From positions 9,982,001 through 10,046,000 of the forward strand of contig CM126232.1 in NCBI GenBank assembly GCA_052327205.1: DNA of 64,000 nt, in the 5' to 3' direction. The notes beneath the pieces are model-generated. The model worked only from the letters and a program-made list of their open reading frames with translations. It did not search any database and was not told the origin of the DNA. The first letter of the stretch is position 1. The number at the start of each line of letters is the position of its first letter. The DNA comes from Somniosus microcephalus. Taxonomy: Eukaryota. Positions 7,293-51,229 of this stretch are shown piece by piece. The position numbers and the translations under genes were made by a program.

Positions 7293-7293
7293 C

Positions 7294-8238: not shown

Positions 8239-8319
8239 CTGATGGGTTCAGGCACAACTTCTTGCGGAGATTGTCACCGTCTTCCTGCAGCAACGACACA
8301 TTCCTCGATATTTCAGCAT
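8239..8319 (-). CDS. C-type lectin neck exon D (81 nt): NAEISRNVSLLQEDGDNLRKKLCLNPS
   Basis: Acceptor ttgatcag, donor CAG/GTAAGA, phase 1-1. Splices in frame onto the CTLD exon; heptad character. Confidence 0.85.
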
Positions 8320-9561: not shown

Positions 9562-9636
9562 TCGATATCTCCAACTCAGAGAGATTCTTCTGTAACTCGC
9601 GGTCCCGTCGTTCTAATTCAGCAACAGCTTCTGAAA
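9562..9636 (-). CDS. C-type lectin neck exon C (75 nt): ISEAVAELERRDRELQKNLSELEIS
   Basis: Acceptor tctgttgcag, donor GTAAGT, phase 1-1, open frame, coiled-coil sequence. Confidence 0.88.
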
Positions 9637-24600: not shown

Positions 24601-27600
24601 TAGTGATGGGGAAGTGATGGAGTTAGTGATGGGGAAGGGATGGAGTTAGTGATGGGACATGGATGGATTAAGTGATGGGAAGGGATGGAGGTATTGATGG
24701 GGAAAGGGTGGAGTTAGTGATGGGGAAGGGATGGAGTTAGTGATGGTAACAGCGATGGGATTTGTGATGTGGTAGGGATGGATTTAGTGATGGGGAAGGG
24801 ATGGAGTCAGTGATGGGGAAGGGATGGAGTTAGTGATGGGGAAGGGATGGAGTTAGTGATGGGGAAGGGATGGAGTTAGTGATGGGGAAGGGATGGAGTT
24901 AGTGATGGGGAAGTGATGGAGTTAGTGATGGGGAACCGAAGGAGTTAGTGATGGGAAGGAATGGCGTTAATGATGGGGAAGGGATGGAGTTGGTGATGGG
25001 ACATGGATGGACTAAGTGATGGGGAAGGGATGGAGTTAGTGATGGGGAAGTAATGGATTTAGTGATGGGGAAGGGATGGAATTAGTGATTGGACCGTAAT
25101 GGAGTTAATGATGGGGAAGTGATGGAGTTAGCGATCGGGAAGTGATGGTGAAGGGATAGAGTTACTGATGGGGAAATGATGGAGATAGTGATGGGGAAAG
25201 GATGGAGTTAGTGATGGGCAAATGATGGAGTTCGTGATGGGGAAGGGATGGATTTAGTGATGGGGAAGGGATGGAGTTAGTGATGGGGAAGGGATGGAGT
25301 GAGTGATGGGACAGGGATGGATGAAGTGATGGGAAGGGATGGAGTTGGTGATGGGTATGGGAAGGAGTTAGTGATGGGGAAGTGATGGAGTTAGTGATGG
25401 TAACTTCGATGGAGTTAGTGATGTGGTAGGGATGGATTTAGTGATGGGGAACGGATGGAGTTATAGATGGGGAAAGGGTGGAGTTAGTGATGGGGAAGGG
25501 ATGGAGTTAGTGATGGTAACTGCGATGGAGTTTGTGATGTGGTAGGGATGGATTTAGTGATGGGGAAGGGATGGAGTCAGTGATGGGGAAGGGAAGGAGT
25601 TAGTGATGGGGAAGGGATGCAGTTAGTGATGGGGATGGGATGGAGTTAGTGATGGGGAAGGAATGGAGTTAGTGATGGGAAGAAATGGAATTTGTGATGG
25701 GGAAGGGATGGAGTTAGTGTTGCGGAAGCGATGGAGTTAGTGATGGGGAAGGGATGGATTTAGTGATGGGGAAGGGATGGAGTTAGGGATGGGGAAGGGA
25801 TGGATTTAGTGATGGGGAAGGGATGGAGTTAGTGATGGGGAAAGGATGGATTTAGTGATGGGGAAGGGATGGAGTTAGTGCTGGGGAAGGGATGGATTTA
25901 GTGATGGGGAAGGGATGGAGTTCGTGATGGGGAAGGGATGAGTTAGTGATGGGGAAGGGATGGAGTTAGTAATGGGGAAGGGAAGGAGTAAGTGATGGGG
26001 AAGGGATGGAGTTAATGATGGGGAAGGGATGGAGTTAGTGATGGGGAAGGGATGGAGTTAGTGATGGGGAAGTGATGGAGTTAGTGATGGGGAAGGGATG
26101 GAGTTAGTGATGGGACATGGATGGATTAAGTGATGGGAAGGGATGGAGGTATTGATGGGGAAAGGGTGGAGTTAGTGATGGGGAAGGGATGGAGTTAGTG
26201 ATGGTAACAGCGATGGGATTTGTGATGTGGTAGGGATGGATTTAGTGATGGGGAAGGGATGGAGTCAGTGATGGGGAAGGGATGGAGTTAGTGATGGGGA
26301 AGGGATGGAGTTAGTGATGGGGAAGGGATGGAGTTAGTGATGGGGAAGGGATGGAGTTAGTGATGGGGAAGTGATGGAGTTAGTGATGGGGAACCGAAGG
26401 AGTTAGTGATGGGAAGGAATGGCGTTAATGATGGGGAAGGGATGGAGTTGGTGATGGGACATGGATGGACTAAGTGATGGGGAAGGGATGGAGTTAGTGA
26501 TGGGGAAGTGATGGATTTAGTGATGGGGAAGGGATGGAATTAGTGATTGGACCGTAATGGAGTTAATGATGGGGAAGTGATGGAGTTAGCGATCGGGAAG
26601 TGATGGTGAAGGGATAGAGTTACTGATGGGGAAATGATGGAGATAGTGATGGGGAAAGGATGGAGTTAGTGATGGGCAAATGATGGAGTTCGTGATGGGG
26701 AAGGGATGGAGTTAGTGATGGAGAATGGATGGAGTTAGTGATGGGATGGTTTGGAGTTAGTGATGGGGAAGGGATGGAGTTAGTGATGGGATGGTTTGGA
26801 GTTAGTGATGGGGAAGGGATGGAGTCAGTGATGGGGAAGGAATGGATTTAGTGATGAGGAAGGGATGGAGTTACTGATGGGGCAGGAATGGAGTTAGTGA
26901 TGGGGAAGGGATGGAGTTAGTGATGGGGCAGGAATGGATTTAGTGATGGGGACGGGATGGAGTCAGTGATGGGGAAGGAATGGATTTAGTGATGGGGAAG
27001 GGATGGAATCAGTGATGGGGAAGGGATGGGGTAAGTAATGGGGAAGGGATGGAGAAAATGTTGGGGAAGGGATGGATTTAGTGCTCGGGAAGGGATGGAT
27101 TTAGTCATGGGGAAGGGATGGAGTTAGTGATGGGGAAGGGATGGAGTTACTGATGGAGAAGTGATGGAGATAGTGATGGGGAAGGGTTGGAGTTAATGAT
27201 GGGGAAGGGATGGAGTTAATGATGGGGAAGGGATGGAGTTAGTGATGGGGAAGAGATGGAGTGAGTGATGGGACAGGGATGGAGTAAGTGATGGGAAGTG
27301 ATGGATTTGGTGATGGGACAGGGATGGAGTATGTGATGGGAAGGGATGGAGTTAGTGATGGGAAAGGGATGGAGTTAGTGATGGGGATGGGATGGAGTTA
27401 GTGATGGGGAAGCGAAGGAGTTAGTGATGGGGAAGGGATGGAGTTAGTGATGGGGAAGGGATGGAGTTAGTGATGTGGAAGGGATGGAGTTAGTGATGGG
27501 GAAGGGATGGAGTTAGTGATGGGGAAGGGCTGGAGTTAGTGATGGGGAAGGGATGGAGTTAGTGATGGGGAAGGGGCGGAGTTAGTGATGGGGAAGAGAC

Positions 27601-30600
27601 GGAGTTAGTGATGGGGAAGGGATTGAGTTCGTGATGGGGAAGGGATGGAGTTAGTGATGGGGAAGGGATGGAGTTAGTGATGGGGAAGGGAGGGAGTTAG
27701 TGATGGGGAAGGGGCGGAGTTAGTGATGGGGAAGAGACGGAGTTAGTGATGGGGAAGGGAGTCAGTTAGTGATGGGGAAGGGATGGAGTTAGTGGTGGGG
27801 AAGGGATGGATTTAGTGATGGGGAAGGCATGGATTCAGTCATGGGGAAGGGATGGTGTTAGTGATGGGGATGTGATGGTGTTAGTGGTGGGGAAGGGATG
27901 GGTTTAGTGATGGGACTGGGATGGAGTTCGTGATGGGGAAGAAATGGAGATGGTGATGGGGAAGGGATGGAGGTAGTGGTGGGGAAGGGATGGATCTCAT
28001 GTTGGAAAAGGGATGATGTTAGTGATGGGGAAGGAATGGATTTAGTAATGGTGAAGGGATGGAGTTGTTGACGGCGAAGCGATGGATTTAGTGATGGGGC
28101 CGGGATGGAGTTAGTGATGAGGAAGAGATGCAGTTAATGATGAGGACGAGATGGAGTTAGTGATGGGGAAGGGATGGAGTTAGTGATGGGGAAGGGAAGG
28201 ATTTAGTGATGGGGAAGGGAAGGAGTTACTAATGGGGAAGGGATGGAGTTAGTGATGGGGAAGGGATGGAGATAGTGATGGGGAAGGGATGGAGTTAGTG
28301 ATGGGGAAGGGATGGAGATAGTGATGGGGAAGGGATGGAGTTACTGATGGAGATAGTGATGGGGAAGGGATGGAGTTAATGATGGGGAAGGGATGGAATT
28401 AATGACCAGGGAAGGATGGAGTTAATGATGGGGAAGGGATGGAGTTAATGATGGGGAAGGGATGGAGTTAGTGATGGGGAAGGGATGGAGTGAGTGATGG
28501 GACAGGGATGGAGTAAGTGATGGGAAAGGATGGATTTGGTGATGGGACAGGGATGGAGTAAGTGATGGGGAAGGGATGGAATTAGTGATGGGAAAGGGAT
28601 GGAATTAGTGATGGGGATGGGATGGAGTTAGTGATGGGGAAGCGAAGGAGTTAGTGATGGGGAAGGGATGGAGTTAATGATGGGGAAGGGATGGATTTCG
28701 TGATGGGGAAGGGATGGAGTTAATGATGGGAAGGAATGGAGTTAGTGATGGGGAAGGGATGGAGTTAGTGATGGGGAAGTGAAAGAGTTAGTTATGGGGA
28801 AGAGCAGGAGTTAGTGATGGGATGGTTTGGAGTTAGTGATGGGGAAGTGATAGACTCAGTGTTGGGGAAGGGACGGATTTAGTGATGGGGAAGGGATGTG
28901 GTCAGTGATGGGGAAGGGATGGAGTTAGTTATGGGGAAAGGATGGAGTTAATGATGGGGAAGGGATGGCGTTAATAATGGGGAAGGCATGGAGTTAGTGA
29001 TGGGGAATGGATGGAGTTAGTGATGGGGAAGGAATGGAGTTAGTGATGGGGAAGGGACGGAGTTCGTGATGGGTAAGGGAAGGAGTTAGTGATGGGGAAG
29101 TGATGCTGTTAGTGATGGGGAAGTGTTGGATTTATTGGTGGGGAAGGGATGGAGATAGTGAAGGGGAAGGGATGGAGTTAGTGATCAGGAAGGGATGGAG
29201 TTCGTGATGGGGAAAGCATGGAATCAGTCATGGGGAAGGGATGGTGTTGGTGATGGGGATGTGATGGTGTTATTGTTGGGGAAATGATGGATTTAGTGAT
29301 GGGGAAGGCATGGAGTCAGTCATGGGGAAGGGATGGTGTTGGTGATGGGGATGTGATGGTGTTAGTGTTGGGGAAGGGATGGGTTTAGTGATGGGACTGG
29401 GATGGAGTTAGTGATGGGGAAGAAATGGAGATGGTGATGCGGAAGGGATGGATGTAGTTGTGGGGAAGGGATGGATCTCATGTTGGAAAAGGGATGATGT
29501 TAGTGATGGGGAAGGAATGGATTTAGTAATGGCGAAGGGATGGAGTTAGTGATGGGGCAGGGATGGAGTTAGTGATGAGGAAGAGATGGAGTTAATGATG
29601 AGGATGAGATGGAGTTAGTGATGGGGAAGGGATGGAGTTAGTGATGGGGAAGGGATGGAGTTAGTGATGGGGAAGGGATGGAGTTAGTGATGGGGAAGGG
29701 ACCAAGTTAGTGATGGGGAAGGGATGGATTTAGTGATGGGGAAGGAATGGAGTTAGTGATGGGGAAGGGATGGAGTTAGTGATGGAATGGTTTGGAGTTA
29801 GTAATGGGGAAGTGATGGAATTAGTGATGGGGATGGGATGGAGTTACTGATGGGGCAGGAATGGAGTTAGTGATGGGGAAAGGATGGAGTCAGTGATGGG
29901 GAAGGGATGGAGTTAGTGATGGGGAAGGGAAGGATTTAGTGATGGGGAAGGGAAGGAGTTACTGATGGGGAAGGGATGGAATTAGTGATGGGGAAGGGAT
30001 GGAGATAGTGATGGGGACGGGATGGAGTTACTGATGGGGAAGGGAAGGAGTTAGTGATGGGGAAGGGATGGAGTTAGTGATGGGGAAGGGATGGAGATAG
30101 TGATTGGGAAGGGATGGAGTTAGTGATGGGGAAGGGATGGAGTGAGTGATGGGACAGGGATGGATTAAGTGATGGGAAGGGATGGAGTTGGTGATGGGTA
30201 TGGGAAGGGGTTAGTGATGGGGAAGTGATGGAGTTAGTGATGGTAACTTCGATGGAGTTAGTGATGTGGTAGGGATGGATTTAGTGATGGGGAAGGGATG
30301 GAGTTATAGATGGGGAAAGGGTGGAGTTAGTGATGGGGAAGGGATGGAGATTGTGATGGGGAAGGGATGCAGTTTGTGATGGGAATGGGATGGAGTTAGT
30401 GATGGGGAAGGAATGGAGTTAGTGATGGGGAAGAAATGGAGTTCGTGCTGGGGAAGGGATGGATTTAGTGATGGGGAAGGGATGGAGTTAGTGATGGGGA
30501 AGGGATGAGTTAGTGATGGGGAAGGGATGGATTTAGTGATGGGGAAGGGATGGAGTTTGTGATGGGGAAGGGATGAGTTAGTGATGGGGAAGGAATGGAG

Positions 30601-32107
30601 TTAGTGATGGGGAAGGGATGGATTTAGTGATGGGGAAGGGAAGGAGTTAGTGATGGGGAAGGGATGAGTTAGTGATGGGGAAGGGATGGAGTTAGTAATG
30701 GGGAAGGGATGGAGTTAGTGGTGGGGAAGGGATGGAGTTAGTGATGGGGAAGGGATGGAGTTAGTGATGGGGAAGGAATGGAGTTAGTGATGGGAAGAAA
30801 TGGAGTTTGTGATGGGGAAGGGATGGAGTTAGTGTTGCGGAAGGGATGGAGTTAGTGATGGGGAAGGGATGGAGATAGTGATGGGGAAGGGATGGAGTTA
30901 GTGATGGGGAAGGGATGGAGTTAGTGATGGGGAAGGGATGGAGTTAGTGATGGGGAAGGGATGGAGTTAGTGATGGGGAAGGGATGGATTTACTGATGGG
31001 TAAGGGATGGAGATAGTGATGGGGAAGTGATGGAGTTAGTGATGGGAAGGAATGGCGTTAATGATGGGGAAGGGATGGAGTTAGTGATGGGACATGGATG
31101 GACTAAGTGATGGGGAAGGGATGGAGTTAGTGATGGGGAAGTGATGGATTTAGTGATGGGGAAGGGATGGAGTTAGTGATGGGGAAGGGATGGAGTTAGT
31201 GATGGGGAAGGAATGGAGTTAGTGATGGGAAGAAATGGAGTTTGTGATGGGGAAGGGATGGAGTTAGTGATGGGGAAGGGATGGATTTAGTGATGGGGAA
31301 TGGATGGAGTTTGTGATGGGGAAGGGATGGAGTTAGTGATGGGGAAGGAATGGAGTTAGTGATGGGGAAGGGATGGAGTTAGTGCTGGTGAAGGGATGGA
31401 GTTAGTGATGGGGAAGGGATGGATTTAGTGATGGGGAAGGGATGGAGTAAGTGATGGGGAAGGGATGGAGTTAGTGATGGGGAAGGGATGGAGTTAGTGA
31501 TGGGGAAGGGATGGAGTTAGTGATGGGGAAGGGATGGAGTTAGTGATGGGGAAGGGATGGAGTTAGTGATGGGGAAGTGATGGATTTAGTGATGGGGAAG
31601 GGATGGAGTTAGTGATGGGACATGGCTGGACTAAGTGATGGGGAAGGGATGGAGTTAGTGATGGGGAAGTGATGGATTTAGTGATGGGGAAGGGATGGAA
31701 TTAGTGATTGGACTGTAATGGAGTTAATGATGGGGAATGATGGAGTTAGTGATCGGGAAGTGATGTAGTTAGTGATGGGGCAGGGATGCAGTCAGTTATG
31801 GGGAAGGGATGGAGTTAATGATGGGGAAATGATTGTGTTCGGGATGGGGAAGGGATGGATTTAATGATGTGGAAGCAATGGAGTTAGTGATGGGGAAGTG
31901 ATGAATTTAGTGATGGGGAAGGGATGGATTTAGTGATGGGGAAGGGATGGAGTTAGTGATGGGGAAGGAATGGATTTAGTGATGGGGAACGGGTGGAGTT
32001 AGTGAAGGGAATGGGATGGTTTTAGAAATGGGGAAGGGATGGTGTTAGTGATGGGGAAGTGATGAAGTTAGCGATATGGATCGGATGGAGTTAGTGATGG
32101 GGAAGGG
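9666..32107. repeat. ~22.4 kb satellite, 23-bp unit GTTAGTGATGGGGAAGGGATGGA (~975 copies by length), intronic
   Basis: Continuous degenerate tandem array, strongly G-skewed, with recurring variant blocks (higher-order repeats). No ORFs. Confidence 0.98.
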
Positions 32108-32290
32108 AACATAGGAATGGAGGAGGCCTTTTAACCCCTCGAGCCTTTTCCGCCATTCAATGTGATTCTGGCTGATCTCTGACCTAACTCCATGTACCTG
32201 CCTTTACCCCAATCCCTTAATATCTTTGGTTAGATTTAAAATTAACAGTTGACCCAGCATAAACTGCCATTTGTGGAAGATTGTTCCAAA
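32108..32290 (-). mobile_element. CR1 3' end fragment
   Basis: GAACATAGGAA..GGAGGCC...CCCCTCGAGCC...CCGCCATTCAAT is the reverse complement of a CR1 3' UTR (compare 61440-61525). Confidence 0.6.
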
Positions 32291-32355: not shown

Positions 32356-32745
32356 GGGCCTAGAAACTCAGTGGTTAGCGCCAGCCGCTAGCGCCTTAAG
32401 AGGCCGAGAAGCGGGGCGCGAGGCGGCTGGCGCCCGGGCGCGGCGCGATCTGCACCTCTCGCGAACTTCAGTCAAGAATTAGCGGCGGTGCAAAACAGTT
32501 GTGCCCACTCAGCTGCGCGCGCTGATCCTGACGTCATTTCATGGTGCAACGCCCTTTGTGCGCCCCGAACCGGAACTTCAGTGCCATAGCATTAATTCGA
32601 TACATCTAATGGGGACTGTAATGGGTGCAAAGGTTGGCTTACTGCATTGCATTCAGAGGGCTCAGAGACGCCGTGAGAGAGTGCCAGTCATGGCCAGACG
32701 GAGAAGGGCCAACAGGCGTCGGCACAGGAGGCCTTACCCACCCAG
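32356..32745 (+). mobile_element. Harbinger 5' terminus plus transposase N-terminus, truncated
   Basis: GGGCCTAGAAA start matches the TIR at 2220-2231. Encodes MGTVMGAKVGLL...RRRRANRRRHRRPYPPR, an Arg-rich Harbinger N-terminus. Confidence 0.7.
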
Positions 32746-33400
32746 GTCAGCTTGCTCATCCATCCTGCAGGCTTTTCCCTCATCCACACAGGGAGCAAGA
32801 ACCTCATAGTTGTTGGACAAGGGCAAAGGCTGAGGCTCCTCCAGCACTGTACCTGGAGTTCCCTTACCTGCCTGAGTTGCAATCACACCCTCCTGTCCCT
32901 GACCACTAACCAGACCTGTACCACTATCTAACCTAAGGGGTGTGACTGCCTCTTGGATCAAAGTGCCCAGGTAACTCTCCCCATCCCTGATGCCCCGCAA
33001 TGTCTGTACCTCAGACTCCAGCTCAAAAACTCTGAGCTGAAGTTCCTCAAGATGCAGGCACTTACTGCAAACGTGGTTGTCCGGGATCACAAAGCTCTCC
33101 ACTAACTCCCACATGCTGCAGTTGCGGCACACCACCTGCACTGCAATCCCAATATGACCTTGTTTTATTTAATTAAATTTGTATTTAGGTAACTTAGTTT
33201 ACAGTGTAGTTTCTTGACTACTTACTTGATCTAGATTAGGTTAAGGGTACTGAAATTAAATATCTGCCTGTAACACAAAGCACTACAAGTAGCGTAGGCA
33301 ACAAGCAGCAACTCCTTCCCCCTCTTATCCAAATTTCCACTCTTTCCAAACTCCCAAATAAAGCACTCTGTTCAATCCACTCCGTTTAATCCCACTCTGT
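32746..33400 (-). mobile_element. CR1 5' fragment (ORF1 zinc finger/leucine zipper); copies at ~37321-37970 and ~41892-42545
   Basis: MQVVCRNCSMWE...HVCSKCLHLEELQLRVFELESEVQTLR...LPLSNNYEVL, a typical CR1 ORF1 N-terminus. Confidence 0.8.
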
Positions 33401-33549
33401 GCACCAATATAAATGTCTGTAGTAACCAGAGCCGGTGATCAGTATCTGTGCAGTATTATCAATCCACCCGATCCCAGTGTCACCATTCTGATAGTTTCCA
33501 GTATGAATAATTGGAGATCAAAGGTCTCACTGATGGTTATTAAACTTAC

Positions 33550-33621
33550 TCTCCTTCAGCTGTGAAATGTCAGTCCTAAGTTCAGCGACTGAGCTTCTTG
33601 TCTCCTCAGACGTTCCTGTAA
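33550..33621 (-). CDS. C-type lectin neck exon B, copy 1 (72 nt): ITGTSEETRSSVAELRTDISQLKE
   Basis: Acceptor cctctttcag, donor GTAAGT, phase 1-1, open frame. Confidence 0.85.
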
Positions 33622-34330
33622 CTGAAAGAGGAACAACACTTGAGATCGTGTGGCACTGTTTGTAGAACAAGATCAATTTTGCTTTCGAACACGAGAGATT
33701 TTCACAGGAGAAAACAGACAAAACTGTTTCCACTGGTTGGCGAGTTGGTAACTGGAGGGCATCAACTGAAGATTTGAAGGTGATCAGCAACACAATGAAG
33801 GGAGAGGTTAGGAATTGTTTTATGCAAATGGTTTTTAAGACCTGGAATGGCCAACCAGAAATAGTGGCGGAAAAAAAGAAAGAAAGACTATTATTTATAC
33901 AGCGTCTTTCACGACCACCAGACGTCTCAAAGTGCTTTACAGCCAATGAAGTACTTTTGAAGTGTAGTCACTGTTGTAATCCCGGAGAGCCAGCACACAT
34001 GATGGTCTGAATGACCTCCTTCCGTGCTGTAAGATTCTATTGATTTTAATTGTACAGTACATGGACACTCATTTATTATCTATTTAATTTTCTTCTCTGG
34101 GAATTCCCCCAATGTGTTCACAGCATAAAAATCTGTAGTGCTTTTATAATGGGCCGATGGGAAGTGTGAACCAATCAAATCCACTTATACTTGATTGGTT
34201 CAAAATTTGAACCAAGCAAAACACTCCAGTGTGAAATGCACTGGAGATCAATCCTCGAAGAATGAGCAGACCATCTGAAAAACTAGAGAGCCCTTTGAAC
34301 TGGAGATCCTGACTGGCATTTAACACTTAC

Positions 34331-34405
34331 TGTTACTCTTTATCTGGGAAAGTTCCATCTTGAAATCGGCCAATGACGCTTTCATTTCACTGAACACCTG
34401 TGGAA
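34331..34405 (-). CDS. C-type lectin neck exon A, copy 1 (75 nt): IPQVFSEMKASLADFKMELSQIKSN
   Basis: Acceptor tttctatttcag, donor GTAAGT, phase 1-1. Two non-synonymous differences from copies 2 and 3. Confidence 0.85.
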
Positions 34406-35047
34406 CTGAAATAGAAAGACAGCTTTAGCTCCCAACCCAGAAACACACTGTGGCACAGGTTAGAATAGTTTGTACACAAATGGCAGCCAAGAGACTGTTC
34501 TGATACCAGATTGGAGTTTAATGATATCGTGAATAGACTAATGGTCCTGTCACCATCATTATTCTTGCTTGTTGTTGACTTTGATGTTCCTCGCACGAGG
34601 TGAGGATGTGTATTCCTTTGAGAGTTCTGAACACACAACACAATTGTAGGGAGGACAAGGAGAAAGCTCAGGTTTTAGGGCTGAAGTAGGTTACAGAGAT
34701 AGGGAAAGGCTGGGCCATGAATGGATTGGGGGACCTGGAGCCAATGTAGTTCAGTAAGGACAGGGGTGATGAGTGAGTGAGACTTGGGATGTGGGACACG
34801 ATATGGGCAGTAGAGATTTGGATGAGCTGAAGGTTATGGAGAGTGCAACATTGGAGGCCGGGCAGGAGAACAGCCGAGTCTGGAGGGGACAGAGGCATGG
34901 ATGAGGGTTTCAGCAGCACATGGTGGGTGATGTTACGGAAGTGGAAGTAGGCAGTCTTCGCGATGGAAAGGATATGGGGTTGGAAGCTGAAGTCGGGGTC
35001 CAATAGAATGCTGAGGTTTGGAACATTTTGGATCAGCCTGAGACAAT

Positions 35048-37255
35048 GGCCCCAATAATAACTCCGCGGTGTGTTTGGAGCGGGATGTGCAATGTCGGGT
35101 GGGAAATCAGGAAGGAATTTTAGCACCTCTGTCTGTGGCATTTTAGTGTAGCTACTTTATTATCATTTGCCTCCACGTTTGACATCGAATGCGGGGCACC
35201 GGGCGTGGTGCGGACCTGCCTGACATAATCTCAACTCCAGTATTTAAAGGTCCATTTCAAAGATGGAATTTGGAGGAGTTGGGAGTTTTTGCCCAGAGAC
35301 AGCCATTGTACAAATGGACTCAGGACGCTCAAAGGCTGCGTCCAACTTTAATAATGCATCGCTCGATGTACTGCTGAATGCTGTCAGGAGCCGGAGAGAG
35401 ATCCTCTTCGCCAGCAATGGGAAGAAGAAACCTGCTGCTGGCACAAAGGAGGCCTGGCTGGAGGTGGCCCAGGAAGTGAGCAGCAGGAGCATTGTGCCAC
35501 GTTCCTGGATTCAGTGCAGGAAGCGCTATAATGACCTAACCAGGTCAGGAAGGGTGAGTACAATTCCTCATGGCACATCAATCACGGCAATCAAATGAGA
35601 CCATGCAGCCCTTGATCACAACGTCTCTGGATACCTTAAATAGGATGACAGATCAATGGATGTGTAATAGGTGATCGGTTGTCTATAGAACTGCTTTGTT
35701 TTAGTGGGATTGAGGAGAGGAGCGAGGAGAGTGGCTGTTGGGTGTGATTGCTACATCGGTCCAGTGCTGGCATCTAACTGAACCTTACAGCCATAAGGGA
35801 ATCCCTGGCACCCGGACAGCAATGTGAGTGGCTGGTGCTGCATTGGGGTTGCCATATTCCTCTTGCTCCTGCTCCTCTTCCTCCTCGGATCCACCTGTAG
35901 ATGGTGTGCGCTCAGAGCCTTGTTCCTCCTGTGGAGCCTATCCTGCGCAATGATGTGCAGAGCGCAGCACACCACAATCATTCTGGACACCCTGGCTGGT
36001 GCGTAATGAAGGGCGCCTCCAGGTCTGTTGAGGCACCTGAAGCGCATCTTGAGCATGCCGATTGTGACACATCTGGTTGTCATATGGCTTTTGTTGTACT
36101 GCTCTTGGGCTTCATTGGTGGGTTTTCACGGGTGTCATCGGCCAAGTTTGAAGTGGGTAACCTTTGTCTCCTAGCAGCCATGCCTTAAGTCTGCTTGCAG
36201 CTCCAAAGACATCAGAGAGCTTGGACTACCGCAGGATGAAAGCACCGTGGCAGCTCCCCGGGAATCTTGCGGTTGCACAGCAGCTGCACATTGATGGATT
36301 GGAAGCCCTTGCGGTTGACGAATACTCCTGGTTGATCTGGGGTGCACGGATTGCCACGTGTGTGCAGTCGATGATGCGCTGCACCTGTGGGAAGCCAGCC
36401 AGAGGTACAAACCCGAGTGTCCGCTCATTCTGACTAGCCTCACCTCAGGTGATGTTGACACAATTGCCAGCCTTGGCAAACAGGCCATCACTCACCTCTC
36501 TTATATATTGTTGGGCCGCCGACTGGGAGATCCTGGATATGTCTCCGGTCGTGTCCTGGAAGGATCCGGAGGCAAAAAGGTTGAGGGTTGTGGTCACTTT
36601 TACAGCCACTGGTGGCCAACCAGGTCCAGAAGGGAGCAGGTCTTCTTCTTGGAGGCTGCAGATGTCTGCCACCACCTGACATGACAACCTGAGCCTCCTG
36701 AAACACTGCTGTTCGGACATGTCAAGGAAACTCAGCCTCGGCCTGTACGTCCTGTGTCGAGGGTAGCGCCCCCTGTGATCTGCCCCCTCTCTGTGCAGCA
36801 CCTCCTCTGCTGCCCCCTCTCTGTGCAGCACCCCCTCTGCTGCCCCCTCTCTGTGCAGCGCCCCCTCTGCTGCCCCCTCTCTGTGCAGCGCCCCCTCTGC
36901 TGCCCCCTCTCTGTGCAGCGCCCCCTCTGCTGCCCCCTCTCTGTGCAGCGCCCCCTCTGCTGCCCCCTCTCTGTGCAGCGCCCCCTCTGCTGCCCCCTCT
37001 CTGTGCAGCGCCCCCTCTGCTGCCCCCTCTCTGTGCAGCACCTCCTTTACTGCCCCCTCTCTGTGCAGTGCCCCCTCTGCTGCCCCCTCTCTGTGCAGCG
37101 CCCCCTCTGCTGCCGCCACTCTGTGCAGCGCCCCCTCTGCTGCCCCCTCTCTGTGCAGCGCCCCCTCTACTGCCCCTCTCTGTGCAGCGCCCCCTCTACT
37201 GCCCCCTCTCTGTGCAGCACCCCATCTGCTGCCCCCTCTCTGTGCAGCATCCCCA
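35048..37255 (-). mobile_element. Internally deleted Harbinger element (Myb/SANT exon 1 on +, 35314-35553; transposase remnant on -); copies at ~39619-41826 and ~44190-47350
   Basis: Plus strand MDSGRSKAASNFNNASLDVLLNAVRSRREILF...WLEVAQEVS...RSWIQCRKRYNDL then GTGAGT. Minus strand [41 protein letters not shown] and TIGMLKMRFRCL. Flanked on the left by an L2 fragment (34647-35047). Confidence 0.88.
36780..37255. repeat. 30-bp GC-rich minisatellite CTGCCCCCTCTCTGTGCAGCGCCCCCTCTG (~16 copies)
   Basis: Direct tandem array inside the Harbinger transposase N-terminus; reads [10 protein letters not shown] in the transposase frame. Confidence 0.96.
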
Positions 37256-38123
37256 GTGCCAGTCATGGCCAGATGGAGAAGGGCCAACAGGCGTCGGCAC
37301 AGGAGGCCTTACCCACCCAGGTCAGCTTGCTCATCCATCCTGCAGGCTTTTCCCTCATCCACACAGGGAGCAAGAACCTCATAGTTGTTGGACAACGGCA
37401 AAGGCCGAGGCTCCTCCAGCACTGTACCTGGAGTTCCCTTACCTGCCTGAGTTGCAATCACACCCTCCTGTCCCTGACCACTAACCAGACCTGTACCACT
37501 ATCTAACCTAAGGGGTGTGACTGCCTCTTGGATCAAAGTACCCAGGTAACTCTCCGCATCCCTGATGCCCCGCAATGTCTGTACCTCAGACTCCAGCTCA
37601 AAAACTCTGAGCTGATGTTCCTCAAGATGCAGGCACTTACTGCAAATGTGGTTGTCCGGGATCACAAAGCTCTCCACAAACTCCCACATGCTGCAGTTGC
37701 GGCACACCACCTACACTGTCATCCCAATATGACCTTGTTTTATTTAATAAATTTGTCTTTAGGTAACTTAGTTTACAGTGTAGTTTCTTGACTACTTTCT
37801 TGATCTAGATTAAGTTAAGGGTACTGAAATTAAATATCTGCCTGTAACACAAAGCACTACAAGTAGCGTAGGCAACAAGCAGCAACTCCTTCCCCCTCTT
37901 CTCCAAATTTCCACTCCTTCCAAACTCCCAAATAAAGCACTCTGTTCATTCCATTCCATTTAATCCCACTCTGTGCATCAATATAAATGTCTGTTGTAAC
38001 CAGAGCCGGTGATCAGTATCTGTGCAGTATTTACAATCCACCTGATCCCAGTGTCACCATTCTGATAGTTTCCAGTATGAATAATTGGAGATCAAAGGTC
38101 TCCCTGATGGTTATTAAACTTAC

Positions 38124-38195
38124 TCTCCTTCAGCTGTGAAATGTCAGTCCTAAGTTCAGCGACTGAGCTTCTTGTCTCCTCAGACGTTCCTGTAA
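38124..38195 (-). CDS. C-type lectin neck exon B, copy 2 (72 nt)
   Basis: Same coding sequence and splice sites as copy 1. Confidence 0.83.
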
Positions 38196-38900
38196 CTGAA
38201 AGAGGAACAACACTTGAGATCGTGTGGCACTGTTTGTAGAACAAGATCAATTTTGCTTTCGAACACGAGAGATTTTCACAGGACAAAACAGACAAAACTG
38301 CTTCCATTGTTTGGTGGGTTGCTAACCGGAGGGCATCAACTGAAGATTTGAAGATGATCAGCAACACAATGAAGGGAGAGGTTAGGAATTGTTTTATACA
38401 AACGGTTTTTAAGACCTGGAATGGCCAACCAGAAATAATGTCGGAAAAAAAGAAAGACTTTTATTTATACAGTGCCTTTCACGACCACCGGATGTCTCAA
38501 AGTGCTTTACAGCCAATGAAGTACTTTTGAAGTGTAGTCACTGTTGTAATCCCAGAGAGCCAGCACACGTGATGGGCTGAATGACCTCCTACCGTGCTGT
38601 AAGATTCTATTGATTTTAACTGTACAGTACATGGACACTCATTTATTATCTATTTAATTTTCTTCTCTGGGAATTCCACCAATGTGTTCACAACATAAAA
38701 ATCTGTAGTGCTTTTATAATGGGCCCATGGGAAATGTGAACCAATCAAATCCACTTATACTTGATTGGTTCAAAATTCGAACCAAGCCAAACACTCCAGT
38801 GTGAAATGCACTGGAGATCAATCCTCGAAGAATGAGCAGACCATCTGAAAAACTAGAGAGCCCTTTGAACTGGAGATCCTGACTGGCATTTAACACTTAC

Positions 38901-38975
38901 TGTTACTCTTTATCTGGGAAAGTTCCATCTTGAAATTGGCCAATGACGCTTTCATTTCACTGAACATCTGTGGAA
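38901..38975 (-). CDS. C-type lectin neck exon A, copy 2 (75 nt): IPQMFSEMKASLANFKMELSQIKSN
   Basis: Acceptor tttccatttcag, donor GTAAGT, phase 1-1. Confidence 0.83.
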
Positions 38976-41350
38976 CTGAAATGGAAAGACAGCTTTAGCT
39001 CTCAACCCAGAAACACACCGTGGCACAGGTTAGAATAGTTTGTACACAAATGGCAGCTAAGAGGCTGTTCTGATACCAGTTTGGAGTTTAATGATACCGT
39101 GAATAGACTAATGGTCGCATCACCATCATTATTCTTGCTTGCTGTTGACTTTGATGTTTCCTCACAGGAGGTGAGGATGTGTATTCCTTTGAGAGTTCTG
39201 AACACACAACACAATTGTAGGGAGGACAAGGAGAAAGCTCAGGTTTTAGGGCTGAAGTAGGTTACAGAGATAGGGAAAGGCTGGGCCATGAATGGATTGG
39301 GGGACCTGGAGCCAATGTAGTTCAGTAAGGACAGGGGTGATGAGTGAGTGAGACTTGGGATGTGGGACACGATATGGGCAGTAGAGATTTGGATGAGCTG
39401 AAGGTTATGGAGAGTGCAACATTGGAGGCCGGGCAGGAGAACAGCCGAGTCTGGAGGGGACAGAGGCATGGATGAGGGTTTCAGCAGCACATGGTGGGTG
39501 ATGTTACGGAAGTGGAAGTAGGCAGTCTTCGCGATGGAAAGGATATGGGGTTGGAAGCTGAAGTCGGGGTCCAATAGAATGCTGAGGTTTGGAACGTTTT
39601 GGATCAGCCTGAGACAATGGCCCCAATAATAACTCCGCTGTGTGTTTGGAGCGGGATGTGCAATATCGGGTGGGAAATCAGGAAGGAATTTCAGCATCTC
39701 TGTCTGTGGAATTTTAACATGGCTACCTCATTATCATTTTACTTCCGGGTTTGACATCGAATGCGCGGCACCGGGCGTGGTGCGGACCTGCCTGACATAA
39801 TCTCAACTCGATTATTTAAAGGTCCATTTCAAAGATGGAATTTGGAGGAGTTGGGAGTTTTTGCCTCGAGACAGCCATTGTACAAATGGACTCAGGACGC
39901 TCAAAGGCTGCGTCCCACTTTAATAATGCATCGCTCGATGTACTGCTGAATGCTGTCAGGAGCCGGAGAGAGATCCTCTTCGCCAGCAACGGGAAGAAGA
40001 AACCTGCTGCTGGCACAAAGGAGGCCTGGCTGGAGGTGGCCCAGGAAGTGAGCAGCAGGAGCATTGTGCCACGTTCCTGGATTCAGTGCAGGAAGCGCTA
40101 TAATGACCTAACCAGGTCAGGAAGGGTGAGTACAATTCCTCATGGCACATCAATCACGGCAATCAAATGAGACCATGCAGCCCTTGATCACAACGTCTCT
40201 GGATACCTTAAACAGGATGACAGATCAATGGATGTGTAATAGGTGATTGGTTGTTTTTGAACTGCTTTGTTTTAGTGGGATTGAGGAGAGGAGCGAGGAG
40301 AGTGGCTGTTGGGTGTGATTGCTACATCGGTCCAGTGCTGGCATCTAACTGAACCTTACAGCCATAAGGGAATCCCTGGCACCCGGACAGCAATGTGAGT
40401 GGCTGGTGCTGCATTGGGGTTGCCATATTCCTCTTGCTCCTGCTCCTCTTCCTCCTCGGATCCACCTGTAGATGGTGTGCGCTCAGCGCCTTGTTCCTCC
40501 TGTGGAGCCTATCCTGCGCAATGATGTGCAGAGCGCAGCACACCACGATCATTCTGGACACCCTGGCTGGTGCGTAATGAAGGGCGCCTCCAGGTCTGTT
40601 CAGGCACCTGAAGCGCATCTTGAGCATGCCGATTGTGACACATCTGGTTGTCATATGGCTTTTGTTGTACTGCTCTTGGGCTTCATTGGTGGGTTTTCAC
40701 GGGTGTCATCGGCCAAGTTTGAAGTGGGTAACCTTTGTCTCCTAGCAGCCATGCCTTAAGTCTGCTTGCAGCTCCAAAGACATCAGAGAGCTTGGACTAC
40801 CGCAGGATGAAAGCACCGTGGCAGCTCCCCGGGAACCTTGCGGTTGCACAGCAGCTGCACATTGATGGATTGGAAGCCCTTGCGGTTGACGAATACTCCT
40901 GGTTGATCTGGGGTGCACGGATTGCCACGTGTGTGCAGTCGATGATGCGCTGCACCTGTGGGAAGCCAGCCAGAGATACAAACCCGAGTGTCCGCTCATT
41001 CTGACTAGCCTCACCTCAGGTGATGTTGACACAATTGCCAGCCTTGGCAAACAGGCCATCACTCACCTCTCTTATATATTGTTGGGCCGCCGACTGGGAG
41101 ATCCTGGATATGTCTCCGGTCGTGTCCTGGAAGGATCCGGAGGCAAAAAGGTTGAGGGTTGTGGTCACTTTTACAGCCACTGGTGGCCAACCAGGTCCAG
41201 AAGGGAGCAGGTCTTCTTCTAGGAGGCTGCAGATGTCTGCCACCACCTGACATGACAACCTGAGCCTCCTGAAACACTGCTGTTCGGACATGTCAAGGAA
41301 ACTCAGCCTCGGCCTGTACGTCCTGTGTCGAGGGTAGCGCCCCCTGTGAG

Positions 41351-41826
41351 CTGCCCCCTCTCTGTGCAGCACCTCCTCTGCTGCCCCCTCTCTGTGCAGC
41401 ACCCCCTCTGCTGCCCCCTCTCTGTGCAGCGCCCCCTCTGCTGCCCCCTCTCTGTGCAGCGCCCCCTCTGCTGCCCCCTCTCTGTGCAGCGCCCCCTCTG
41501 CTGCCCCCTCTCTGTGCAGCGCCCCCTCTGCTGCCCCCTCTCTGTGCAGCGCCCCCTCTGCTGCCCCCTCTCTGTGCAGCGCCCACTCTGCTGCCCCCTC
41601 TCTGTGCAGCACCTCCTTTACTGCCCCCTCTCTGTGCAGTGCCCCCTCTGCTGCCCCCTCTCTGTGCAGCGCCCCCTCTGCTGCCGCCTCTCTGTGCAGC
41701 GCCCCCTCTGCTGCCCCCTCTCTGTGCAGCGCCCCCTCTACTGCCCCTCTCTGTGCAGCGCCCCCTCTACTGCCCCCTCTCTGTGCAGCGCCCCATCTGC
41801 TGCCCCCTCTCTGTGCAGCATCCCCA
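41351..41826. repeat. 30-bp minisatellite, second array (~16 copies)
   Basis: Nearly identical to 36780-37255, including the order of variant units. Confidence 0.96.
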
Positions 41827-42694
41827 GTGCCAGTCATGGCCAGATGGAGAAGGGCCAACAGGCGTCGGCACAGGAGGCCTTACCCACCCAGGTCAGCTTG
41901 CTCATCCATCCTGCAGGCTTTTCCCTCATCCACACAGGGAGCAAGAACCTCATAGTTGTTGGACAACGGCAAAGGCCGAGGCTCCTCCAGCACTGTACCT
42001 GGAGTTCCCTTACCTGCCTGAGTTGCAATCACACCCTCCTGTCCCTGACCACTAACCAGACCTGTACCACTATCTAACCTAAGGGGTGTGACTGCCTCTT
42101 GGATCAAAGTACCCAGGTAACTCTCCGCATCCCTGATGCCCCGCAATGTCTGTACCTCAGACTCCAGCTCAAAAACTCTGAGCTGAAGTTCCTCAAGATG
42201 CAGGCACTTCCTGCAAATGTGGTTGTCCGGGATCACAAAGCTCTCCACAAACTCCCACATGCTGCAGTTGCGGCACACCACCTACACTGTCATCCCAATA
42301 TGACCTTGTTTTATTTAATAAATTTGTATTTAGGTAACTTAGTTTACAGTGTAGTTTCTTGACTACTTTCTTGATCTAGATTAAGTTAAGGGTACTGAAA
42401 TTAAATATCTGCCTGTAACACAAAGCACTACAAGTAGCGTAGGCAACAAGCAGCAACTCCTTCCCCCTCTTCTCCAAATTTCCACTCCTTCCAAACTCCC
42501 AAATAAAGCACTCTGTTCATTCCATTCCATTTAATCCCACTCTGTGCATCAATATAAATGTCTGTAGTAACCAGAGCCGGTGATCAGTATCTGTGCAGTA
42601 TTTACAATCCACCTGATCCCAGTGTCACCATTCTGATAGTTTCCAGTATGAATAATTGGAGATCAAAGGTCTCCCTGATGGTTATTAAACTTAC

Positions 42695-42766
42695 TCTCCT
42701 TCAGCTGTGAAATGTCAGTCCTAAGTTCAGCGACTGAGCTTCTTGTCTCCTCAGACGTTCCTGTAA
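42695..42766 (-). CDS. C-type lectin neck exon B, copy 3 (72 nt)
   Basis: Intact AG/GT sites, phase 1-1, same peptide as the other copies. Confidence 0.85.
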
Positions 42767-43471
42767 CTGAAAGAGGAACAACACTTGAGATCGTGTGGCA
42801 CTGTTTGTAGAACAAGATCAATTTTGCTTTCGAACACGAGAGATTTTCACAGGACAAAACAGACAAAACTGCTTCCATTGTTTGGTGGGTTGCTAACCGG
42901 AGGGCATCAACTGAAGATTTGAAGATGATCAGCAACACAATGAAGGGAGAGGTTAGGAATTGTTTTATACAAACGGTTTTTAAGACCTGGAATGGCCAAC
43001 CAGAAATAATGTCGGAAAAAAAGAAAGACTTTTATTTATACAGTGCCTTTCACGACCACCGGATGTCTCAAAGTGCTTTACAGCCAATGAAGTACTTTTG
43101 AAGTGCAGTCACTGTTGTAATCCCAGAGAGCCAGCACACGTGATGGGCTGAATGACCTCCTACCGTGCTGTAAGATTCTATTGATTTTAATTGTACAGTA
43201 CATGGACACTCATTTATTATCTATTTAATTTTCTTCTCTGGGAATTCCCCCAATGTGTTCACAACATAAAAATCTGTAGTGCTTTTATAATGGGCCCATG
43301 GGAAATGTGAACCAATCAAATCCACTTATACTTGATTGGTTCAAAATTCGAACCAAGCCAAACACTCCAGTGTGAAATGCACTGGAGATCAATCCTCGAA
43401 GAATGAGCAGACCATCTGAAAAACTAGAGAGCCCTTTGAACTGGAGATCCTGACTGGCATTTAACACTTAC

Positions 43472-43546
43472 TGTTACTCTTTATCTGGGAAAGTTCCATC
43501 TTGAAATTGGCCAATGACGCTTTCATTTCACTGAACATCTGTGGAA
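43472..43546 (-). CDS. C-type lectin neck exon A, copy 3 (75 nt): FPQMFSEMKASLANFKMELSQIKSN
   Basis: First neck exon after the TM exon; intact AG/GTAAGT, in frame. Confidence 0.87.
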
Positions 43547-45931
43547 CTGAAATGGAAAGACAGCTTTAGCTCTCAACCCAGAAACACACCGTGGCACAGG
43601 TTAGAATAGTTTGTACACAAATGGCAGCTAAGAGGCTGTTCTGATACCAGTTTGGAGTTTAATGATACCGTGAATAGACTAATGGTCGCGTCACCATCAT
43701 TATTCTTGCTTGCTGTTGACTTTGATGTTTCCTCACACGAGGTGAGGATGTGTATTCCTTTGAGAGTTCTGAACACACAACACAATTGTAGGGAGGACAA
43801 GGAGAAAGCTCAGGTTTTAGGGCTGAAGTAGGTTACAGAGATAGGGAAAGGCTGGGCCATGAATGGATTGGGGGACCTGGAGCCAATGTAGTTCAGTAAG
43901 GACAGGGGTGATGAGTGAGTGAGACTTGGGATGTGGGACACGATATGGGCAGTAGAGATTTGGATGAGCTGAAGGTTATGGAGAGTGCAACATTGGAGGC
44001 CGGGCAGGAGAACAGCCGAGTCTGGAGGGGACAGAGGCATGGATGAGGGTTTCAGCAGCACATGGTGGGTGATGTTACGGAAGTGGAAGTAGGCAGTCTT
44101 CGCGATGGAAAGGATATGGGGTTGGAAGCTAAAGTCGGGGTCCAATAGAATGCTGAGGTTTGGAACATTTTGGATCAGCCTGAGACAATGGCCCCAATAA
44201 TAACTCCGCGGTGTGTTTGGAGCGGGATGTGCAATGTCGGGTGGGAAATCAGGAAGGAATTTCAGCATCTCTGTCTGTGGAATTTTAACATGGCTACCTC
44301 ATTATCATTTTACTTCCGGGTTTGACATCGAATGCGCGGCACCGGGCGTGGTGCGGACCTGCCTGACATAATCTCAACTCGAGTATTTAAAGGTCCATTT
44401 CAAAGATGGAATTTGGAGGAGTTGGGAGTTTTTGCCCAGAGACAGCCATTGTACAAATGGACTCAGGACGCTCAAAGGCTGCGTCCCACTTTAATAATGC
44501 ATCGCTCGATGTACTGCTGAATGCTGTCAGGAGCCGGAGAGAGATCCTCTTCGCCAGCAATGGGAAGAAGAAACCTGCTGCTGGCACAAAGGAGGCCTGG
44601 CTGGAGGTGGCCCAGGAAGTGAGCAGCAGGAGCATTGTGCCACGTTCCTGGATTCAGTGCAGGAAGCGCTATAATGACCTAACCAGGTCAGGAAGGGTGA
44701 GTACAATTCCTCATGGAACATCAATCACAGCAATCAAATGAGACCATGCAGCCCTTGATCACAACGTCTCTGGATACCTTAAATAGGATGACAGATCAAT
44801 GGATGTGTAATAGGTGATTGGTTGTCTATAGAACTGCTTTGTTTTAGTGGGATTGAGGAGAGGAGCGAGGAGAGTGGCTGTTGGGTGTGATTGCTACATC
44901 GGTCCAGTGCTGGCATCTAACTGAACCTTACAGCCATAAGGGAATCCCTGGCACCCGGACAGCAATGTGAGTGGCTGGTGCTGCATTGGGGTTGCCATAT
45001 TCCTCTTGCTCCTGCTCCTCTTCCTCCTCGGATCCACCTGTAGATGGTGTGCACTCAGCGCCTTGTTCCTCCTGTGGAGCCTATCCTGCGCAATGATGTG
45101 CAGAGCGCAGCACACCACGATCATTCTGGACACCCTGGCTGGTGCATAATGAAGGGCGCCTCCAGATGTGTCCAGGCACCTGAAGCGCATCTAGAGCATG
45201 CCGATTGCTTGCTAAGTGACACATCTGGTTGTCATATGGCTTTTGTTGTACTGCTCTTGGGCTTCATTGGTGGGTTTTCACGGGTGTCATCGGCCAAGTT
45301 TGAAGTGGGTAACCTTTGTCTCCTAGCAGCCATGCCTTAAGTCTGCTTGCAGCTCCAAAGACATCAGAGAGCTTGGACTACCGCAGGATGAAAGCACCAT
45401 GGCAGCTCCCCGGGAACCTTGCGGTTGCACAGCAGCTGCACATTGATGGATTGGAAGCCCTTGTGGTTGACGAATACTCCCGGTTGATCTGGGGTGCACG
45501 GATTGCAACGTGCGTGCAGTCGATGATGCCCTGCACCTGTGGGAAGCCAGCCAGAGATACAAACCCGAGTGTCCGCTCATTCTGACTAGCCTCACCTCAG
45601 GTGATGTCGACACAATTGCCAGCCTTGGCAAACAGGCCATCACTCACCTCTCTTATATATTGTTGGGCTGCCGACTGGGAGATCCTGGATATGTCTCCGG
45701 TCGTGTCCTGGAAGGATCCGGAGGCAAAAAGGTTGAGGGTTGTGGTCACTTTTACAGCCACTGGTGGCCAACCAGGTCCAGAAGGGAGCAGGTCTTCTTC
45801 TAGGAGGCTGCAGATGTCTGCCACCACCTGACATGACAACCTGAGCCTCCTGAAACACTGCTGTTCGGACATGTCAAGGAAACTCAGCCTCGGCCTGTAT
45901 GCCCTGTGTCGTGGGTAGTGCCCCCTGTGAG

Positions 45932-47285
45932 CTGCCCCCTCTCTGTGCAGCGCCCCTGTGAGCTGCCCTCTCTCTGTGCAGCACCCCCTCTGCTGCCCCC
46001 TCTCTGTGCTGCGCCCCCTCTGCTGCCCCCTCTCTGTGCAGCGCCCCCTGTGCTGCCCCCTCTCTGTGCAGCACCCTCTCTGCTGCCCTCTCTGTGCAGC
46101 GCCCCCTCTGCCGCCCTCTCTGTGCAGCACCCCCTCTGCTGCCCTCTCTCTGTGCAGCGCCCCCTCTGCTGCCCCCTCTCTGTGCAGCGCCCCTTCTGCT
46201 GCCCCCTCTCTGTGCAGCGCCCCCTCTGCTGCCCTCTCTCTGTGCAGCGCCCCTCTGCTGCCCCCTTTCTGTGCAGCGCCCCCTCTGCTGCCCCCTCTCT
46301 GTGCAGCGCCCCCTCTGCTGCCCTCTCTCTGTGCAGCGCCCGCTCTGCTGCCCCCTATGTGTGCAGCGCCCCCTCTGCTGCCCCCTCTCTGTGCAGTGCC
46401 CCCTTTGCTGCCCCCTCTCTGTGCAGCGCCCCCTTTACTGCCCCCTCTCTGTGCAGCGCCCCCTCTGCTGCCCCTCTCTGTGCAGCGCCCCCTCTGCTGC
46501 ACCCTCTCTGTGCAGTGCCCCCTTAACTGCCCCCTCTCTGTGCAGCGCCCCCTCTGCTGCCCCCTCTCTGTGCAGCTCCCCCTCTGCTGCCCCGCACCCC
46601 CTTTGCTGCCCCCTCTCTGTGCAGCATCCCCTCTGCTGCCCCCTCTCTGTGCTGCCCCCTCTCTGTGCAGCGTCCCCTCTGCTGCCCCCTCTCTGTGCAG
46701 CGCCCCCTTTACTGCCCCCTCTCTGTGCAGCGCCCCATCTGCTGCACCCTCTCTGTGCAGCGCCCCCTTTGCTGCCCCCTCTCTGTGCAGCGCCCCATCT
46801 GCTGCCCCCTCTCTGTGCAGCGCCCCCTCTGCTGCCCCCTCTCTGTGCAGCGCCCCCTCTGCTGCCCCCTCTCTGTGCAGCGCCCCCTCTGCTGCCCCCT
46901 CTCTGTGTAGCGCCCCCTCTGCTGCCCCCTCTCTGTGCAGCACCCCCTTTGCTGCCCCCTCTCTGTGCAGCACCCCCCTTACTGCCCCCTCTCTGTGCAG
47001 CGCCCCATCTGCTGCCCCGTCTCTGTGCAGCGCCCCCTCTGCTGCTCCCTCTCTGTGCAGCGCCCCCTCTGCTGCCCCCTCTCTGTGCAGTGCCCCCTCT
47101 GCTGCCCCCTCTCTGTGCAGCGCCCCATCTGCTGCCCCTCTCTGTGCAGCGCCCCCTCTGCTGCCCCCTCTCTGTGCAGCGCCCCCTCTGCTGCCCCCTC
47201 TCTGTGCAGCGCCCCCTCTGCTGCCCCCTCTCTGTGCAGCGCACCCTCTGCTGCCCCCTATCTGTGCAGCGCCCCCTCTGCTGCT
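45932..47285. repeat. 30-bp minisatellite, third and longest array (~45 copies, more heterogeneous)
   Basis: Same unit as 36780-37255, with many 29-bp and substituted variants. Confidence 0.96.
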
Positions 47286-50288: not shown

Positions 50289-50408
50289 ACAGTATAACTG
50301 CAGTGCCAAGAACCACTACAGACAGCAGGATGGAGAGACCCAGGAGAATGTAGATGACCAGAGGTGACCGTTTTCCTCCGACAGGCTCTGCTGATCGGAC
50401 ACCAGTTT
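50289..50408 (-). CDS. C-type lectin transmembrane exon (120 nt): ETGVRSAEPVGGKRSPLVIYILLGLSILLSVVVLGTAVIL
   Basis: Acceptor ctttctcttacactttgcag, donor GTAAGT, phase 1-1. Basic residues followed by a ~24-aa hydrophobic helix indicate a type II signal anchor. Confidence 0.92.
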
Positions 50409-50963: not shown

Positions 50964-51144
50964 CTGTTCAGATCTAAATCCATCAGTTTTTCTGAAGAAG
51001 TGGAATTTCCTAACAACACGCTCCCCAACCAATGAGAAATGACCTTTTCACTGTTGTTAATTGATCTGAAGGTGTTAATGAATTCGAACTAATTAACTCA
51101 AACTGAATAAACTCTACAATAATGATCAGATCACTGATGTGTAC

Positions 51145-51229
51145 CTGGCTTCAACTCCTGTTTTCCTCTGCCTCCTATTAGTTGATCAGAATAAAAATCA
51201 CTGAGATTTTGACAATTGTCTAGCTCCAT
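51145..51229 (-). CDS. C-type lectin first coding exon (85 nt), cytoplasmic tail MELDNCQNLSDFYSDQLIGGRGKQELKP
   Basis: Kozak-compatible gacATGG, donor CAG/GTACAC, phase 1, joins the TM exon in frame. Confidence 0.75.

Follow-up and report, generated by a model that had tools for sequence, protein, structure and literature searches.

The 64,000-nucleotide stretch analyzed here (the window; contig CM126232.1, C31 in our numbering, positions 9,982,001-10,046,000 of the 6.45-Gb genome of Somniosus microcephalus) carries a predicted group II C-type lectin gene on the minus strand, part of whose stalk is encoded by a tandem array of three repeat units. The nearest relatives of its product are shark proteins. 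An earlier reading of the letters alone (the original prediction) had proposed a receptor stalk extended by duplication of an exon pair at 33550..43546. The feature is there, whereas its extent was underestimated, as the first repeat unit begins at 32680 and the gene itself extends from 51229 to approximately 7.6 kb left of the window.

All 13 exons lie on the minus strand. The gene opens with a cytoplasmic tail exon of 85 nt that ends in phase 1 (51145..51229), in which a cysteine replaces the tyrosine of the YQN[LI] motif found in paralogs; the same exon type opens the homologues P0001 and P0103. It is followed by a type II transmembrane (TM) exon of 120 nt (50289..50408, phase 1-1), 88% identical to sawshark proteins, and by six stalk exons in the order A3 (43472..43546), B3 (42695..42766), A2 (38901..38975), B2 (38124..38195), A1 (34331..34405) and B1 (33550..33621). 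The A exons are 75 nt and the B exons 72 nt long, and all six have AG/GT sites, are phase 1-1 and, as originally claimed, keep their splice sites and frame. Exon B is identical across the three units, while A1 is a variant with V and D in place of the M and N of A2 and A3. Between B1 and the next stalk exon, the intron holds 22 kb of a 23-bp satellite (9666..32108); four paralogs have a short copy of this satellite, at the end of which they switch to another head type (QPN). The satellite amounts to ~978 copies in this one intron and ranges in paralogs from ~0.1 kb to ~90-120 kb, the latter estimated by sampling. Downstream lie stalk exons C (9562..9636, 75 nt, phase 1-1; 17/24 identical to a stretch of P0002) and D (8239..8319, 81 nt, phase 1-1; 19/26 to P0001 and 20/26 to P0002) and the three exons of a C-type lectin domain (CTLD). 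CTLD exon 1 (4102..4253) is 92% identical to P0001 and had no Pfam hit on its own; exons 2 and 3 lie left of the window (C31:9975542-9975654 and 9974409-9974556), both match Pfam Lectin_C, and they supply EPN, WND and the stop codon.

Spliced in silico, the gene yields a frame of 1215 nt and 404 amino acids with a single terminal stop and a stalk of 200 residues. The product has the layout of group II C-type lectins, namely a short N-terminal tail, a single type II TM segment, a stalk and one C-terminal CTLD. The three-exon CTLD with EPN and WND likewise places it in group II, and Pfam Lectin_C is also found on its homologues. EPN and WND define mannose-type binding, and the head is predicted to be a mannose-type sugar-binding CTLD. 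At each A|B joint, splicing generates the sequon N-I-T and thus one potential N-glycan site per pair. An extra tail exon near 50496-50533 was considered and left out because of its weak donor.

Self-BLAST of the window revealed a direct repeat (32680-41818 versus 37255-46396; 9154 columns, 97.8% identity), confirming three tandem units of ~4.57 kb, each with one exon A and one exon B, that extend from 32680 to past 46396. Unit 1 (32680..37254) starts within a high-copy dispersed repeat, the equivalent stretch of which has very high contig depth. Unit 2 (37255..41825) is bounded at both ends by the same minisatellite-to-repeat junction, and unit 3 (41826..47284) extends into a long, 45-unit copy of the 30-bp minisatellite, compared with 16 repeats for units 1 and 2. 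Divergence between the units is 0.9-2.6% (identity 97.5% for units 1 and 2, 97.4% for 1 and 3, and 99.07% for 2 and 3). Unit 2 is a mosaic: over 37255-39754 it shares 75 sites with unit 3 versus 3 with unit 1, while over 40255-41331 it shares 17 with unit 1 versus 6 with unit 3. This is the pattern that unequal crossover between two-unit copies predicts, which supports the route originally proposed. The tandem duplication of whole phase 1-1 exons is real and would extend the stalk, as had been suggested.

Both internal junctions fuse the minisatellite to a point within the repeat, with no homology visible at the join. In DNA fetched from the surrounding cluster, the same junction recurs with small variants 13 times in eight paralogs and on both strands, and a genome search returned 11 matches with at most one mismatch versus none for the reversed control. 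The three units are distinct from one another and from the three-unit arrays of other paralogs, and C31 9,862,001-10,056,000 contains no 500-N gap. The triplication is very likely real rather than a product of stacked haplotypes. One contig of organism B has a junction-type variant at 37249, but identical letters occur in plain minisatellite. The contig with exon B had a depth of 748 (X1) and 335 (X3) versus 16 (X4), which is a hint only given that no single-copy baseline was available, and it was not used as copy number.

The arithmetic of the unit, 147 nt or 49 residues or seven times seven, is correct, yet the unit does not consist of seven canonical heptads. Exon A scored best in register 4 (0.97) and exon B in register 1 (0.70, versus 0.46 in register 4), the two having one core column in common, so that no single a/d register continues through the 49 residues. 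At the exon joints, the sequence has a register shift and a proline. In our reading, A (25 residues, 3x7+4) and B (24 residues, 3x7+3) would contribute a stutter and a proline-bearing stammer that cancel. Exons A, C and D all score best in one register, and an added full pair would thus keep the register downstream; the Fourier periodicity peaks at 3.51. Of the seven-heptad claim, the length of 49 residues and the net register after a full pair therefore stand and the uninterrupted run of canonical heptads does not. A coiled coil rises ~1.5 A per residue, at which one A-B pair adds ~7 nm, as had been estimated.

Exons A and B are related to each other (shuffle P=0.0005) and are old exons. Constraint was assessed against the A-B intron alone, the outer flanks being dropped because they contain non-homologous DNA. 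Exon B has 6/72 variable sites compared with 125/602 in the intron (Fisher P=0.011, the copies being non-independent). Of 14 shark homologues (database gene models) that were parsed, 13 have stalks that read D, AB, BB, AB, AB, AB, ABB, BAAA, B, B, B, AA and C+D. Neck exon number, which the original prediction had suggested comparing, thus differs among homologues (from B to BAAA), and a repeated A-B pair was found in none of the 14. Annotated isoforms of other shark lectins also differ by one stalk repeat (22 aa between P0026 and P0027; 25 aa between P0028 and P0040). In CD23, each stalk repeat may have its own exon, of which the mouse would have one more; if so, CD23 would be a direct precedent for stalks that grow by exon duplication. 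In contigs from two relatives (organisms F and D), which are guessed to be RNA, positions 33622-34330 (CT..AC) are absent, A is joined to B at the exon boundaries of the window, and a second B follows. The B-B arrangement in X15, with differences of 0 and 1, is unusual in a graph contig; firmer cases are X16, whose second B has seven differences, and the proteins P0103 and P0106.

We modeled three copies of the sawshark A-B orthologue P0102, which scored 0.58 versus 0.02 for the best control (pLDDT 84; at least 90% of contacts agreed between runs). Of 30 proteins solved as pairs, 21 reached this mark, compared with none of 23 single chains; among eukaryotes, the figures were 17/29 (animals 7/16), 1/7 for proteins without an older solved relative and 0/30 for single chains. 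The score may stem from the memory of solved lectin necks. In the model, the stalk forms a parallel coil with an 11-residue step at the A|B joint, where the core spans 11 residues (82-93). In a PDB comparison, the orthologue P0001 had its best single-domain hits in langerin and DC-SIGNR.

The window gene is one member of a cluster, which we surveyed by genome searches and ~1.6 Mb of fetched DNA, not every head being fetched whole. Fifteen assembled genes with tail, TM segment and stalk lie at C31 9.05-11.07 Mb, and more at 5.0-9.0 Mb. In order along the cluster, the 15 genes have 4, 1, 2, 2, 2, 1, 2, 3, 2, 1, 2, 3, 4, 1 and 3 A-B pairs. Seven have an EPN head reached via exon C and seven a QPN head, while the remaining gene runs into a gap; one of the seven EPN genes lacks D and CTLD exon 1, with C followed by CTLD exon 2 after 1.2 kb (C31:9,558,765-9,561,260). 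Their tails carry DYQNI (six genes), NYQNL (three) or the tyrosine-less NCQNL (six, including the window gene), and YQN[LI] may correspond to the YxxL/I endocytosis motif of ASGPR, which it resembles. Frame and splice sites are intact in 38 of 39 A-B pairs, and 35 of 41 B exons are identical. The V/D residues of A1, put forward as a marker to assign reads to the window gene, do not serve this purpose, as the same sequence occurs in 7 of the 39 A exons. Genes with tyrosine-less tails have 2-4 pairs (mean 3.0) and those with tyrosine tails 1-3 (mean 1.7); this association is no test, because the copies share ancestry.

Tails, stalks and heads are combined across these genes. The window gene, which has an EPN head, is 100% identical to a QPN gene over 5.6 kb around the tail and TM exons. 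Hybrid structures are seen in four QPN genes: their 5' part, which is like that of the window gene, breaks in the satellite and joins the native QPN intron at one common point, by which these genes gain the native A-B pair. A head swap by crossover between satellites was rejected, as the native QPN genes have no satellite in the fetched stretches and the junction is non-homologous. Two of the links to heads cross satellite introns of ~90-120 kb that were sampled only. Outside the main group, an A-A-B gene lies at 7.4 Mb in the same genome, and an older paralog at C31:8,758,000-8,815,000 has an irregular series of at least 13 A/B-type exons, which are diverged, some broken and one with a stop. 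The stalk of the latter is the longest seen.

Contig ends at 10,197,900-10,204,787 and 11,060,000-11,066,973, both at 500-N gaps, match each other in reverse. This suggests that the scaffold holds an 862-kb plus-strand block in the wrong orientation, and two partial genes may belong to a single gene.

Together, these observations probably reflect the tandem expansion of an old, symmetric pair of stalk exons in one gene of a shark group II C-type lectin cluster that multiplied recently, with unequal crossing-over as the likely means of spread, the product being a predicted trimeric mannose-type receptor with a stalk of ~200 residues. The junction between the minisatellite of the upstream intron and the repeat of the downstream intron would have arisen once, given its recurrence in eight paralogs, and a misaligned crossover, of which the mosaic middle unit appears to be the trace, would then have yielded the third copy. 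The paralogs mix one to four A-B pairs with three tails and two heads. Each exon would form a short stretch of coiled coil, at the ends of which the register shifts, and for this reason the stalk would tolerate added exons. Any phase 1-1 exon could thus be added, a full pair contributing ~7 nm and one N-glycan site with the net register restored. The outcome would be a family of glycan receptors of differing reach. The window gene, without a tail tyrosine, would capture its ligands rather than internalize them or signal efficiently.

Several results weigh against this interpretation. No spliced A/B reads were found in two RNA runs of unspecified tissue with the same species label (16.7 million records, ~24% of one run, and 14.4 million, ~31% of the other), X24 gave only ~2x unspliced cover over B, and no B-to-A joint was found among the joints listed for four runs. 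Exon A, with 11/75 variable sites, has no significant excess of constraint over the intron (P=0.28). Broken copies occur in the cluster, comprising one B without acceptor, the head without D and CTLD exon 1, and orphans at gaps. Certain paralogs reach 99.95-100% identity over 5-13 kb and the region has three 500-N gaps; with these gaps, orphan pieces and near-identical copies, assembly may have inflated the gene count and produced some of the tail-head linkages. Some of the cluster genes may also be haplotype duplicates and the plus-strand block mis-oriented. In raw DNA data, contigs gave no clear bridge over the junction, the paralogs being collapsed in short contigs, and the unit starts in a very high-copy repeat. 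Finally, the trimer model is that of a one-pair orthologue, P0102, rather than of the window protein, and the AlphaFold monomer of P0102 (11 sequences) had a mean pLDDT of 47 with a helix break at 82-86 and was kept out of the fold search.

Part of this evidence would also fit a neutral origin, in which the extra units and the many paralogs are debris of recent birth and death, and the added exons are in frame as they are young and symmetric, being skipped or belonging to a gene that is barely expressed. We consider this a minor but real possibility. It is consistent with the lack of spliced A/B reads in the two runs, with the non-significant constraint on exon A, with the broken and headless copies and with the tail of the window gene, which has no tyrosine; moreover, at a divergence of 0.9-2.6% between units, intact exons are expected without selection. 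However, 38 of 39 pairs are intact, exon B is under stronger constraint than its intron, annotated proteins of other sharks and contigs of relatives also have A/B stalks of several exons, and all 13 exons form one open frame.

A more far-reaching proposal is a germline repertoire of mix-and-match lectins, in which recombination would exchange, independently of one another, endocytic or silent tails, a ladder of 7-nm stalk steps (~9-29 nm over the genes found) and EPN or QPN heads, and in which the register-restoring pair would let chains of unequal length co-assemble. We hold this to be unlikely. If true, it would constitute a variable receptor system akin to KIR or BG and based on reach instead of ligand sequence.

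According to the original prediction, the 49-residue unit is favored since it maintains a continuous coiled coil, the length of which is set by alleles and splicing. The net register restored after each pair and the periodicity peak of 3.51 are in line with this, as is the fact that every recent duplication in the main cluster involves the pair, the four chimeric QPN genes also gaining it whole. Isoforms of shark lectins that differ by one stalk repeat (the 22-aa and 25-aa cases above) fit as well. However, the pair duplications derive from one junction and count as approximately two independent events, and the prior for a multiple of seven is one in seven. Exon B prefers another register than A, and the stalks B, BB, AA, ABB and BAAA together with the irregular 13-exon array indicate that a multiple of seven is not needed in this lectin family. 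As the working basis of the stalk, the multiple of seven is thus not supported, and this explanation appears improbable to us. That haplotypes or paralogs were stacked as three units by the assembly is very improbable: the gaps, near-identical paralogs and overlapping contig ends of the cluster and the unbridged junction would allow it, but stacking does not produce a non-homologous junction that recurs at 13 sites with sequence variants of its own, the three units differ mutually and from the arrays of other paralogs, their surroundings are free of 500-N gaps, and the depth over exon B points, as a hint only, in the same direction.

Tandem expansion of the stalk-exon pair can be set against known variable necks. 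In the portions of the literature drawn on here, the necks of DC-SIGNR/L-SIGN (CLEC4M) and DC-SIGN consist of 23-25-residue heptad-like repeats with a proline-bearing break and in variable number, and CLEC4M has an allelic variable number of tandem repeats (VNTR) within exon 4 and forms four-helix bundles (PMC2971551; PMC3261175; PMC11945572). The shark gene is likewise a type II C-type lectin that projects its head on 24-/25-residue repeats of variable number, and the segmented DC-SIGNR neck, as far as it is described in the sections used (PMC2971551), resembles the 11-residue step of the P0102 trimer model. In contrast to CLEC4M, the shark repeats are separate exons of two alternating types duplicated in 4.57-kb blocks, the variation was seen between paralogs, and the trimer was the only state modeled. 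The suggested likeness to the L-SIGN neck therefore extends to a neck of variable repeat number and stops short of a VNTR within one exon, each repeat being its own exon. A short tail, type II TM segment, heptad stalk and Ca2+-type CTLD are also found in CD23/FCER2, langerin, MGL and ASGPR, group II lectins whose stalk forms a trimer, as outlined in parts of PMC6791321 and PMC2212946; a trimer is likewise predicted for the shark product.

With regard to the cluster as a whole, the chicken BG region offers similar dynamics: according to the excerpts considered (PMC4046983), tandem immune receptors expand and contract there, hybrid genes arise by unequal crossing-over or deletion, and the proteins have a many-heptad coiled coil. 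In the same excerpts, BG molecules differ in being of Ig type, with a cytoplasmic coiled coil of 21-nt repeats and no lectins. In fish, DC-SIGN-like group II genes are known to have expanded, as stated in a portion of PMC514892. Automatically annotated shark proteins named 'CD209 antigen-like protein C' or 'hepatic lectin-like' (P0001, P0102-P0112, P0032) have the same tail, TM segment and two head types, and their A and B exons match those of the window at up to 21/24 and 20/23 identical residues. Database names of the homologues are automatic and mixed (hepatic lectin-like, CLEC10A-like, CD209-like). No functional study of these CD209-like/hepatic lectin-like homologues was found, nor any published description of the shark cluster in the open-access literature. 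The cluster thus appears to be undescribed. The variation between paralogs, with its swaps of tails and heads, had been missed in the original prediction.

Variable necks and hybrid genes in immune clusters are already known; the shuffling of tail, stalk and head across paralogs is the interesting part, more so than the arithmetic of seven times seven. Neck length in DC-SIGNR has been linked to head placement and, genetically, to infection risk in the portion of that literature considered. The shark cluster would attain DC-SIGNR-like neck variation through whole-exon duplication, plus recombination of tails and heads, and the family likely varies the distance that its lectin head reaches. With one to four pairs on near-identical heads and tails, it would provide a natural series for a direct test of reach.

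Each repeat unit also carries a decayed Harbinger-type transposon (35248..37248 in unit 1), with a Myb/SANT frame on the plus strand, a DDE_Tnp_4 fragment on the minus strand and the 30-bp minisatellite at 36765-37248. Within the front part of the Harbinger transposase frame (36445-37250, minus strand), the minisatellite is in frame and reads as a repeat of 10 residues. By eye, two more Harbinger-like relics lie in the introns flanking CTLD exon 1 (1-2250 and 4400-7300), the DNA upstream of the gene (~55,400-59,960) holds a possible Ty3/gypsy-like long terminal repeat (LTR) retrotransposon, the two LTRs of which are similar, and another LTR retrotransposon seems to start near 63,000. Short tandem duplications were observed in intron 1 (70 bp x2, 50818-50988) and upstream of exon 1 (302 bp x2, 51487-52136).

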